64,000 nucleotides of DNA from an uncultured Candidatus Micrarchaeota archaeon (GTDB lineage Archaea; Micrarchaeota; Micrarchaeia; Anstonellales; Bilamarchaeaceae), in contig OY970229.1 in the NCBI GenBank assembly GCA_963714085.1, positions 192,001 to 256,000 of the forward strand. The letters are read 5' to 3'. A program made the position numbers. Below are positions 36,001 to 39,000 of the stretch, in pieces; the first letter of the stretch is position 1, and each line of letters begins with the position of its first letter.

Positions 36001-39000
36001 TTCATGCAAGCCGCCAATTAAGCGGCGAGGTAATACGTCAAGGCCATCCTTTCTAAAAGGATTACCGAGGATCTCGCTACTCAATCTCATGGGCAACTTG
36101 CTTTCTAGGGCAACTCCTTCGCGCTCTCAAGGCATCCTCATATGTGAATATAAGGTCGATAGCCTTGTTTACGCTACCTTAAGAGGGTCAGAGTTACCCC
36201 CGCTCTTTACTGGTCCTTTTTCGGGTTGAAACCCGCTTTCAGATACCAGCAGTGGGCAGGCGTCAGCCATCATACTCAGCCTTTCGGCCCTGCGATGACC
36301 TGTGTTTTTGGTAAACAGTCGCTCTCCCCTTGTTACTGAGACCACCGCCTTGCTCAGGCGATGGCACCCCTTATACCAAAGGTACGGGGCTAACTTGCCG
36401 AATTCCCTTGCTCGGGTTGTCCTGACACACCTTAGCCTTCTCAGCTAGAGCACCTGTACTAGTTCTCGGTACGGTTGCAGAGGGTCGTTCCGCTCCACTT
36501 TTCATGGGCCCCTGGATTTGATGGAATTGCCCCTTCGGCTTTCACCTGCTTCTCCTCACAATGAGACTCCACAGGCCTACATCCTACAGACATCTTGCGA
36601 TGCTCCACCTATCCGAAGGCGTCATGGAAACGGCTTGCGTTGCCGCGCCTACCTCCGCAGGGTCGGAATATTAACCGACTTCCCTGATTTCGGGCTTCAG
36701 GAATTGCCTTGGCCCTTAGGACCGCCTAACCCTCAGCTGAAGAACGTTGCTGAGGAATCCTTGCTCTATAAGGTGTCCAGAATTCTCGTCTGGATATGCT
36801 GCTACTAACACCAAGATATTCATAACAGGACGCTCCACACGACGTTACCGCCGTGCTTCTGCGCGACCCGTTCGCCCCCCTACTCGCATGCTTTTGGCAT
36901 CGGTGAGGTATCGGAAGCTGGTTTGAGCCCCGTGAATTTTCAGAGCCTGCACCCTCGATCGGTCCGCTGTTACGCGTTGTTTAAAGGATGGCTGCTTCTA
37001 AGCCTACCTCCCGATTGTTTTTGGATGGAAACTCCTTTACGATTAACACTTAACCAGCATTTAGGGCCCTTAGCCTCACGTATGGTCGTTCCCATACAGG
37101 CCCTCAGGCTTACCCCGAGGAACCCAACTGCCTCCTTCTACGAAGATATGGCATTCGGAGTTTGAGAGGATGGCGACCCCTTTCGGAGCCATTCCGCCCA
37201 ATCGGTGCTCTACCGCCATATCGTTCTCCAGAGACGCTGTGCTGAGACACATTTCGGAGGGAACCCGCTATCGCCGTGTTCGACAGGACTATCACCCCTA
37301 CACCCAAGTCACCTAAGTGGAATATACCAACATTAGTTGCGGGCCTCCATTGGTCGTCAGACCAACTTCGCCCTGCTCGGGTGTAGCTCACAACGGCTTC
37401 GGGTCTGTTAAGGGTGACTGATCGCGATTTACCACGACGCCCCTCGCGCATTGCTGCGTTGCGGGCACTCGCTTTCGCTTCGACTTTCATCTCGCCACAC
37501 CTAATAACTCCTTGGCTCTTGCTTCGAGAAGAAAGATACAACACTGGTGGAACCGTGTCGCTTGCGGCGTTGCCACCGTTCGCTTCCACGGTCATAAACC
37601 CTTTCATGCCGTACCATTCTGTGACCACATAATTTCAGGTTCTTTTGACACCGCTTCCGCGGTGCTTTTCAGCATTCGCTCGCGCTACTATTTCGCTATC
37701 GGTCTGAGGCCCCATGTTTAGATTTGGAGGTTGATGCCCCCACCTTCACGTCCCCTATCCGAGGGATGCTACTCTTCATGGTTCGCCCCCCTTTCCTTCG
37801 CATACGAGGCTATCACTCGCTATGGCACGGCATTCCAGCCGACTTCTGCTCGGAAAGAGGATACTACCCGCTACATCTACTCCGACGTTACCGCCGAAGA
37901 ATTCAGCGTGATCTGTCCGGCTTTCAATCGCTTTTACTTACCGGATCGCATTGCTTTCTCTTCCTTCCCCTACTAAGATGCTTCATTTCGGGGAATTGCT
38001 GCACTCTTACGTGCGCCGCCAAACCCCGGGATCGCAGACTGCGTGCGTCTCCCCCGGGCTTATCGCAGCTTGCCGCGTGGCCCTGCGGGCCTCAGCCAAG
38101 CCATCCACTATGTGGCGTAGCAAATTTGCATATCGCTACTAAACTCACTTCAGTAAAAATACCCGGATTTCTCCAGATAAATCTCCTAAAATCTTGCCGT
38201 CACTTCACACGCATCACAGCGCGCCGCACGAGGCGGCCCGCAGGCAACGGCGCAATCTGGCGCCGTCGCAGATTCCCCGAATCACGGGGAGAGACAGAAT
38301 ACTCGCTCTGGGTCCATGCATCTCTCATGCTCCGAGGAGCATACTCGACGTACAAACGAGCGGTAACCCAATAGTATGATTATACTCCTTTATAAAGGTT
38401 TGGTTGGAATCTCGTGTAGAAGGGTGATTTAGTGCCAAGTGGTTTGATGTCAAGTGGTTTGCTGTTGAGAAAAAATTCGTATAATATTTGGGGGGGCGGG
38501 ACTAGTCAGAAGACTAAAAGAAAGAAATTTTCCCGTACTGTCGAGAAAACGATATATCAGAAATATCATGGTAAATGTGCGATATGTGGAAAAACTGTAG
38601 AGTTTGATTACGGGGAAGTCGACCATATTACCCCATTAGCAAAAGGCGGCTCGAACAGACCGAGCAATTTGCAATGGTTATGTCATCGTTGCAATAAGAT
38701 AAAAGGCAGTAGTAAAACAAATGCCCAGGTGAAAGAGTTGCTCGGCATTAAAACAAAAAGCAAACAAAAGAAGAAAACTGCTGGACGAAGGCCCGTTAGA
38801 AAAAGGCAAGTTAACGCCTTTGGGTTCGAGCCGATTCGAATGCCGAAACTCAGGATCTAGTACTCAAACTCAACTCTTTCTCTCCTTTTCGGCTTTCTAT
38901 GTGCAGCAAACTGAACCGACTCACCGTCTCTAGTCTCGAACTCAACCGGCCTTTTGGTTTTGGTCCTTTCGCTTCTAGCTAAAAACGATGCTTTTGCCAT

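Follow-up and report, generated by a model that had tools for sequence, protein, structure and literature searches.

The window analysed here, a stretch of 64 kb, belongs to a genome assembled as a single contig of 1.57 Mb (completeness 88%). One 23S rRNA gene was found in it; the 16S gene lies at C1:1509224-1510802, so that the 23S gene is not linked to it. The 23S gene is interrupted by one short intron, of which the genome holds a single copy, and the parts of this intron are collected with their exon targets in Table 1. The position numbers used throughout follow an alignment to E. coli and are approximate. They are consistent with group-I-type insertions that map to 1923, and with a site LSU/1923 listed in the available portion of PMC6125680.

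Table 1. Features of the 23S rRNA gene and its intron (window coordinates; rRNA positions marked ~ are in E. coli numbering).
Feature	Position	Strand	Evidence or remark
Archaeal 23S rRNA gene, carries one intron	35002..38132	-	Rfam RF02540, 2286.9 bits
ORF-less BHB intron, 136 nt, after ~A1938	36033..36168	-	Rfam alignment gap; empty-site relatives
5' exon target, helix 69 and strand after it, ~1907-1932	36175..36200	-	
Terminal stem P1, 5' strand	36158..36167	-	fold; conserved pairs
Hairpin A, sequence variable	36136..36155	-	predicted fold
GAGGA, invariant, overlaps hairpin A in the window's copy	36135..36139	-	17/17 copies
Block 1, antisense to ~1922-1932	36124..36134	-	11 bp, 2 G-U
Block 2, antisense to ~1907-1917 (helix 69 5' strand and loop)	36107..36117	-	11 bp, 3 G-U
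Block 3, antisense to ~1956-1965	36092..36101	-	10 bp, 2 G-U
Block 4, antisense to ~1942-1955 (helix 71 5' strand and loop)	36073..36086	-	13/14 paired
UCCUCG, conserved, predicted 3' strand of P3; alternatively pairs with the end of block 4	36066..36071	-	16/17 copies
Hairpin B	36046..36062	-	predicted fold; compensatory changes in consensus
Terminal stem P1, 3' strand	36039..36048	-	fold; conserved pairs
BHB central helix, intron strand, 4 bp	36035..36038	-	pairs with exon 36174-36171, ~1933-1936
3' exon target, helix 71 and strand after it, ~1942-1965	36006..36029	-	

A short intron without an ORF

The survey's finding on this locus began with a BHB intron of 136 nt without an ORF, and this description is borne out by the fold, by the empty sites of relatives and by a longest Met-ORF of 26 aa. 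The ends form a terminal stem of 10 bp and a central helix of 4 bp; the 5' bulge has 3 nt and the 3' bulge is relaxed. Set against the joined exon sequence of 47 genomes of the same family with an empty site, the insertion is an intron at a fixed position. The host encodes both a splicing endonuclease and a ligase, as expected of a genome with BHB introns: its EndA is of the ARMAN-2 epsilon-2 type (full-length match to 4FZ2, E 1e-134), which suggests a host of Micrarchaeota type, and RtcB is present. Epsilon-2 EndA has a broad specificity and cuts relaxed BHB motifs, according to the accessible part of PMC3488258. No ORF of the homing-endonuclease type was found in any of 17 copies of the intron, in which the longest Met-ORF, counted in the linear sequence only, spans 4-36 aa. 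Inside the intron we obtained no Rfam match at E<=10, and a group I core was not detected (copies are 128-145 nt long).

Copies were gathered by junction patterns that did not include the complementary blocks described below, which gave 15 distinct sequences, 128-145 nt in length, that fall into 11 clusters. The scan of the genome collection returned at least 120 loci, mostly by chance, of which archaeal rRNA loci alone were kept; the metagenome scan gave 9 matches (4 by chance) and the scan with the pattern of the window's family gave 14 (4 by chance). We left out L157 and L102 as identical to L153 and G037, respectively. A covariance model built from the 15 copies added G131, from another family of the same order, and G294:C24, from a family outside the order. 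The intron thus comprises at least 17 distinct copies in 13 clusters, all in Micrarchaeota-type hosts, and pairs of clusters are mostly about 50-65% alike. Among the 99 genomes of the window's family, 10 carry it, 47 have an empty site and the remainder gave no match. The intron tree agrees with the host tree for the only large clade that is well supported. Five matches in a viral scan, none of them with intron ends, were taken as chance. A search of sequencing runs with the G037 relative returned 23 runs, none with half of its words; in four runs compared through this relative at 85% likeness, the interior had no coverage and the joints that skip 135 nt are explicable by intron-less relatives.

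From its 5' end, the intron runs through the 5' strand of P1, hairpin A, GAGGA, block 1, a spacer, block 2, block 3, an insert, block 4, UCCUCG, hairpin B and the 3' strand of P1. Seven pairs of P1 are kept in all 15 copies compared, and in five of these one pair is changed on both sides. GAGGA and UCCUC are predicted to pair as P3, which would close the antisense core; the two strands of P3 vary so little that no covariation is seen. The consensus fold contains P1, hairpin B and, in the core, a weak helix of 4 pairs only. Blocks 1 and 2 had been described as the best-kept parts of the interior, a distinction that they share with GAGGA, UCCUCG and a G[CU]AAG motif conserved in 15 of the 17 copies.

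The interior is complementary to both exons

The two blocks antisense to the upstream exon that the survey reported are confirmed here. Block 1 pairs with exon positions 36185-36175 and block 2 with 36200-36190, each without a mismatch, and the sequence patterns given for them (block 1 in 17 of 17 copies, block 2 in 14 of 17) were reproduced on our independently gathered set. The duplex with the upstream 29-nt target has an energy of -23.0 to -35.6 kcal/mol, compared to shuffle means of -13.7 to -19.8. None of 200 shuffles reached the observed value in 15 of the 17 copies (13 of 17 in the earlier count), and at most 6 of 200 did so in the others, as before. Two further blocks, which had been missed, are antisense to the downstream exon. 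Against the downstream 27-nt target the duplex reaches -22.9 to -34.4 kcal/mol, with 0 of 200 shuffles in 7 of the 17 copies and at most 6 of 200 in 14; the downstream arm is weaker in G293, L152 and L153, where 13-19 of 200 shuffles reach the value. For the late-found G131 and G294, 0 of 500 shuffles did so on either arm. Block 4 includes a run of 17 bp in G069 and a perfect run of 11 bp in G131, and is degenerate in G164 and G109 (2 of 13 clusters). Positions 1931-1924 in block 1 and 1965-1962 in block 3 are without mismatch in all 11 clusters. The window genome's exon flanks served as the target for all copies of the family, and the registers of blocks 2-4 are best ungapped fits, which is optimistic as to register and pessimistic as to bulges.

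Each arm is thus about 25 nt long with a central bulge, and covers the 5' strand and loop of a native hairpin plus the strand that follows it; the assignment of the targets to helices 69 and 71 is taken from the Rfam structure. The spacer between blocks 1 and 2 (7-11 nt) partly prolongs the antisense. Between the arms, ~1933-1941, the zone of the BHB and the splice junction, is left free. When the whole spliced 23S rRNA is scanned, a flank gives the best 29-nt window in 10 of 11 clusters; the first two ranks both go to flanks in 6, and the 3' flank falls beyond the top five in 2. As the survey noted for six hosts, some targets are themselves interrupted: an insertion at 1927 lies inside the upstream target in 6 of 17 hosts. 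Full pairing of block 1 in these 6, and of block 3 in 3 of 17, is available only after the neighboring intron has been spliced.

Could the blocks be kept for pairing within the intron? Over 13 clusters, block 1 is paired in 116 of 117 cells with the exon, in 72 with the intron's own 5' stem and in 79 with its best downstream internal partner. Block 2 is paired with the exon in 108 of 117 cells and with the best partner anywhere in 90, at varying places. Because the exon fits better than the internal partners and the core helix is weak in the consensus fold, we reject an internal stem as the explanation. The stretch proposed earlier as the internal partner of block 1 is in fact block 4, antisense to the downstream exon. 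Also in line with the survey, there are two copies, L050 and L153, in which block 1 begins with a base that can pair with the exon and not with the intron's own stem.

Changes in the blocks tend to keep the pairing

On the tree of 13 clusters, block 1 has undergone 7 changes in 9 columns (0.8 per column), whereas 68 columns of background average 3.2 changes each. The survey's statement that the blocks vary in ways that keep pairing holds for most changes in blocks 1 and 2. Changes of this kind make up 6 of 7 in block 1 (expected share 0.28, p 0.002), 15 of 24 in block 2 (0.24, p 8e-5), 11 of 23 in block 3 (0.31, p 0.07) and 18 of 46 in block 4 (0.20, p 0.003), p values that are rough in view of a weakly supported tree and of best-fit registers for blocks 2-4. 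Where a column faces an A or C of the target, block 1 shows no change and block 2 shows 1.0 per column, compared to 4.0 per wobble-tolerant column of block 2. Deamination or another mutation bias toward A>G and C>T could produce such a pattern, but the background (A>G 13, C>T 10, G>A 10, T>C 20) has no excess of wobble-keeping changes, and we reject it. Two-sided covariation is not visible because the exon target is the same in all hosts.

Taken as a comparison of sequences, these results indicate that the core of the intron is an arm against the 5' exon followed by an arm against the 3' exon, both apparently kept under selection. Selection for pairing between the arms and the rRNA on either side seems to us very probable. 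The survey read the intron as a guide or chaperone for helix 69. Its premise of a selected pairing stands; the restriction to helix 69 falls, since helix 71 has an arm of equal length and both arms end at the splice junction. A guide or chaperone for helix 69 that the host cannot do without is unlikely, since the site is empty in 47 genomes of the family and filled in 10.

Such arms were not seen in three sets of other rRNA insertions, compared as blunt controls. At the same site, 14 distinct ORF-less introns of 32-118 nt from Aenigmatarchaeota-type hosts and Hadarchaeota are all plain hairpins; one of them, the 34-nt L045, reached 0 of 200 shuffles, on the 5' side only (mononucleotide shuffles, with the upstream targets of five hosts left unspliced). 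Among 81 other 23S insertions, three have one side at or below 1 of 100 shuffles and none has both, a control that is insensitive in that the alignment-derived ends are shifted in some true copies (the 5' arm of G134 gave 61 of 100). None of 12 16S insertions showed antisense significance.

What the arms may do

Our best reading is that the intron is a chaperone acting on its own precursor, its exon-binding arms clamping and unfolding helices 69-71 around the splice site, although we put this forward tentatively, with slightly less than even confidence. In the precursor, helices 69 and 71 would be opened as each arm forms a hairpin with its own exon, and the two hairpin loops could then kiss via P1, the 4-bp central helix and P3. 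This would offer the epsilon-2 endonuclease a relaxed BHB that lacks an exon-side helix. The arms would keep this region of the 50S core unfolded until cutting and hold the exon ends for RtcB, and native refolding would afterwards expel the intron circle. They would serve clean removal of the intron itself rather than any need of intron-less ribosomes, and the 47 empty against 10 filled genomes of the family fit such a self-serving role.

The order of target, arm, arm and target (X-X'-Y'-Y) corresponds to two nested cis hairpins. In folds of the precursor, pairing of block 1 with the exon has P>=0.4 in 6 of 11 clusters and that of block 3 P>=0.5 in 8 of 11. In such nested folding P1 has a probability of at most 0.27 in all 11, and the fold in which P1 is forced lies 1.1-14.6 kcal/mol above the best fold. 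Of the 11 forced exon-bound folds, 7 are more stable than the forced P1 fold, one is level with it and 3 are less stable. Since the arms oppose P1 in nested folding, the clamp requires a pseudoknot; a rough sum that leaves out pseudoknot and loop penalties is more favorable than the P1-forced fold in all 13 clusters but surpasses the best nested fold in only 9 of them. Had the arms done nothing but block the splicing of the only 23S gene, they should have decayed; the two folds therefore coexist, or else the arms are useful after excision. If the folds coexist, every conserved element would, on this model, be in use at once. Pairing that has to await the splicing of a neighboring intron fits action after splicing equally well, and it counts against the clamp that the plain hairpins found at this site in other lineages, 14 introns in all, do without arms.

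It is tempting to speculate that the arms act in trans, although we consider this unlikely. In such RNA-level homing, an excised circle with neither gene nor ribozyme would find an empty site by RNA-RNA pairing, binding spliced 23S rRNA on both sides of the junction and bringing its ligation loop near ~1933-1936; tRNA-splicing endonuclease and ligase would reinsert it, and reverse transcription or recombination would fix the product in DNA. The arms are complementary to the fully spliced sequence on either side of its junction, and binding in trans to a 66-nt spliced segment is favorable by 3.1-10.1 kcal/mol in 11 of 11 clusters. The intron is also patchy although it has no ORF (10 of 57 assembled sites of the family), and reaches two other families. 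Introns 94% alike sit in exons 90% alike in G293 and L153, and introns 77% alike in exons 93% alike in G037 and G129, a pair of comparisons that is suggestive at most. Against homing, no reverse transcriptase was found in the window's genome (88% complete), two covariance-model searches of 150 genomes each found no copy at another site, and the intron scaffold is absent from the 81 other 23S insertions. The sole clear conflict between intron and host, in G303, could be taken for a horizontal transfer, which we reject: the upstream exon is foreign too, and exon 1840-1900 is 95% like that of another clade, which makes it a chimera or a DNA conversion tract. Introns with endonuclease-type ORFs at ~1912, ~1938 (G052) and ~1963 moreover allow ordinary co-conversion, a mechanism set out in the available text of PMC4496867.

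A modification guide, in cis or in trans, or an assembly chaperone that acts from a stable circle to the benefit of the host seems quite unlikely. The host does encode fibrillarin, Nop5, L7Ae, Nop10 and a TruB/Cbf5-family gene (the Cbf5 DKCLD domain was not found in this genome, 88% complete), a tRNA-Trp intron that directs the modification of the RNA hosting it is described in the available part of PMC7994747, and block 4 has a mismatch at ~C1947 that recurs in 7 of 11 clusters. The survey already observed that neither C/D nor H/ACA boxes fit, and we agree. By the box definitions in that same portion of PMC7994747 (C/C' RUGAUGA, D/D' CUGA), CUGA occurs in 1 of 17 copies and an exact box C in none, the look-alikes with one mismatch mostly overlapping GAGGA. 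An H/ACA guide, as outlined in the accessible part of PMC7991803, leaves UN unpaired in a pocket under an upper stem with a K-turn or K-loop. The intron has neither upper stem nor K-loop, the spacer between blocks 1 and 2 being 7-11 nt long and partly taken up by antisense. Nor is there a pocket: block 2 pairs with U1911, U1915 and mostly also U1917, so that the known uridines of helix 69 lie within the duplex. The gap at the junction is ~9 nt, not 2. No ACA box lies 14-16 nt from a target U near the 3' end: the ACA common to the 17 copies is at intron positions 1-3 only, inside the BHB/P1 end. The lack of an Rfam match within the intron and the 47 relatives that do without it also count against a guide.

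We regard it as improbable that the arms are a splint holding the micro-exons of 11-25 nt that introns at ~1912, ~1927 and ~1963 create. Block 2 is centered on the 1912 junction and block 1 on the 1927 junction, and the 1927 intron is found in 4 of 11 filled sites (10 family genomes and L050) compared to 6 of 47 empty ones (Fisher p 0.083). However, 4 of the 47 empty-site genomes have both the 1912 and the 1927 introns and manage without a splint, and the window's gene has no neighboring introns yet its arms are among the strongest.

A remnant of a fold-back (inverted) duplication of both flanks, kept by internal structure or not selected at all, is an account that we likewise doubt strongly. 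The survey had raised an inverted duplication, and as to origin the idea fits well: X-X'-Y'-Y is the outcome expected of fold-back break repair, and a single unrelated element, G441, holds both antisense and sense-like pieces of exon. It does not explain upkeep. Block 1 is conserved between diverged clusters, its A- and C-facing columns have stayed unchanged, the internal partners fit worse than the exon and the consensus core helix has 4 pairs, so that duplication as the sole explanation is largely refuted.

Relation to known introns and guides

BHB introns are generally taken to require their ends alone; what lies between may be the gene of an endonuclease or a plain hairpin, and in rare cases it is a C/D guide. 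Pairing with both exons is not known from protein-spliced archaeal introns, and exon-complementary arms in BHB introns are not described in the literature searched, a search that did not extend to the older archaeal rRNA-intron papers. A BHB intron whose interior appears to be selected to pair with ~50 nt of the ribosome core would be a new variant among them. In outline it resembles self-splicing introns: in group II introns (EBS/IBS) and group I introns (internal guide sequence), intron segments pair with the two exons beside the splice site and serve both splicing and reverse splicing. Unlike them, the window's intron pairs over a far longer stretch, has no ribozyme core and has BHB ends cut by protein.

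The ORF-less BHB rRNA introns of Jay & Inskeep (2015, PMC4496867), placed in a hairpin and a 'remnant/uncharacterized' class, share with the window's intron an rRNA site, a terminal BHB stem, the lack of an ORF, a patchy distribution and neighboring endonuclease introns that would enable co-conversion. The available text of that paper does not mention a conserved core of ~60 nt antisense to both flanks. The tRNA-Trp intron and sR50, a C/D guide, are likewise a case of a BHB intron with an interior complementary to the host RNA; judging from the accessible parts of PMC7994747 and PMC4090602, they have two guides fixed to D boxes, whereas the window's intron has no C/D boxes, has four blocks that span ~50 nt and is dispensable in most relatives. 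Chaperone-type sno/sRNAs, as covered in the portion of PMC7994747 at hand, also combine several rRNA-complementary blocks that could open or gather helices. The window's intron differs from them in being encoded in its own target at the splice site, in having no boxes and in being absent from 47 of 57 sites.

The arms may aid either excision of the intron or the finding of empty sites. If they act in cis, they would amount to a built-in folding checkpoint for helices 69-71. If they act in trans, the gain of archaeal introns, still called an open question in the available part of bioRxiv 10.64898/2026.10.13.758758, could be tested with two purified enzymes and short RNAs, and reinsertion, if true, would be a concrete route to such gain without a homing endonuclease.

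A candidate second case

At the same site, an Aenigmatarchaeota chromosome (G441) carries an intron of 175 nt. The covariance model did not detect it, and no relative was found in 140 other genomes of its phylum, so it looks independent of the family described here. Its own upstream exon differs, and to that exon the intron is antisense in runs of 13, 12 and 14 bp, with a further run of 11 bp to ~1962-1972. Judged by these runs, it may be a second case, independently built.

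A look-alike intron and other insertions in 23S genes

The record titled Aenigmatarchaeota (G441) has a 175-nt intron at the same site, ~1938, as our ORF-less intron. Three stretches of this intron, of 13, 12 and 14 bp, are antisense to the exon that precedes it, and a fourth, of 11 bp, is antisense to ~1962-1972; it also contains a hairpin in which the helix-69 loop is repeated in sense orientation. We found no relatives of it in 140 other genomes of its phylum, and the covariance model of the main intron family gave no match either. In the window, the intron holds an 8-nt second match to ~1908-1915 (36091-36098, minus strand), a near-duplicate of block 2, the part antisense to ~1907-1917; in this copy it overlaps block 3, which is antisense to ~1956-1965.

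The ~1938 site is also occupied in genome G052 (L133 / L249), by an 803-nt intron with a 236-aa ORF. LAGLIDADG-like motifs can be seen in this ORF by eye, and its product is a candidate for the endonuclease that would cut 1938 sites lacking an intron. Introns of 79-84 nt inserted after reference position ~2597 in G245 (L241) and G215 (L240) have in common an internal stem that resembles the upstream exon; for G245, complementarity to the flank is weak (2/100 shuffles).

Mosaic and oddly binned carriers

In G303 (C1, L252, near 17400-17625), a carrier of the main intron family, the 23S gene is a mosaic: the ~1840-1900 exon and the intron belong to one clade and the exon after ~1970 to another. 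This could be due to either an assembly chimera or a conversion tract next to a 711-nt ORF intron at ~1963. The G294 bin contains two differing 23S genes (L288 on C15 and L289 on C24): in one the site is empty and the helix-69 stem differs, while the other has the intron. This probably indicates mis-binning. Another intron-bearing archaeal 23S contig, L050 (G444:C25), lies within a bin titled Patescibacteria.

RNA genes and processing factors of the host genome

The insert in the RtcB frame of the window's own genome (G000) may be an intein. The TruB-family gene of this genome gave no match to DKCLD. Its 16S gene is interrupted near base 1083 by an inserted hairpin of 39 nt, and another insertion probably lies near base 470-510.

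Coordinates of the look-alike intron and of host features
Feature	Location	Strand	Remarks
175-nt intron, ~1938 site	L202:1513-1687	+	L202 = G441 = L033, CP066684.1
16S gene	G000:C1:1509224-1510802	+	Far from 23S gene
RtcB frame, 647 aa	G000:C1:1304382-1306085	-	Insert >100 aa near profile position 50
Second splicing-endonuclease-like frame (181 aa); TruB-family gene (289 aa)	G000:C1:656924-657166, 1365510-1365860	+, -	Jointly listed
142-aa ORF	Window 38432-38860	+	Close upstream of 23S gene; HNH-endonuclease-like motif (by eye)
Dehydroquinate-synthase-like gene, EPSP-synthase-like gene, HEAT-repeat protein (putative, by eye)	Window 41382-42509, 45819-47069, 29384-31423	-, -, +	Jointly listed
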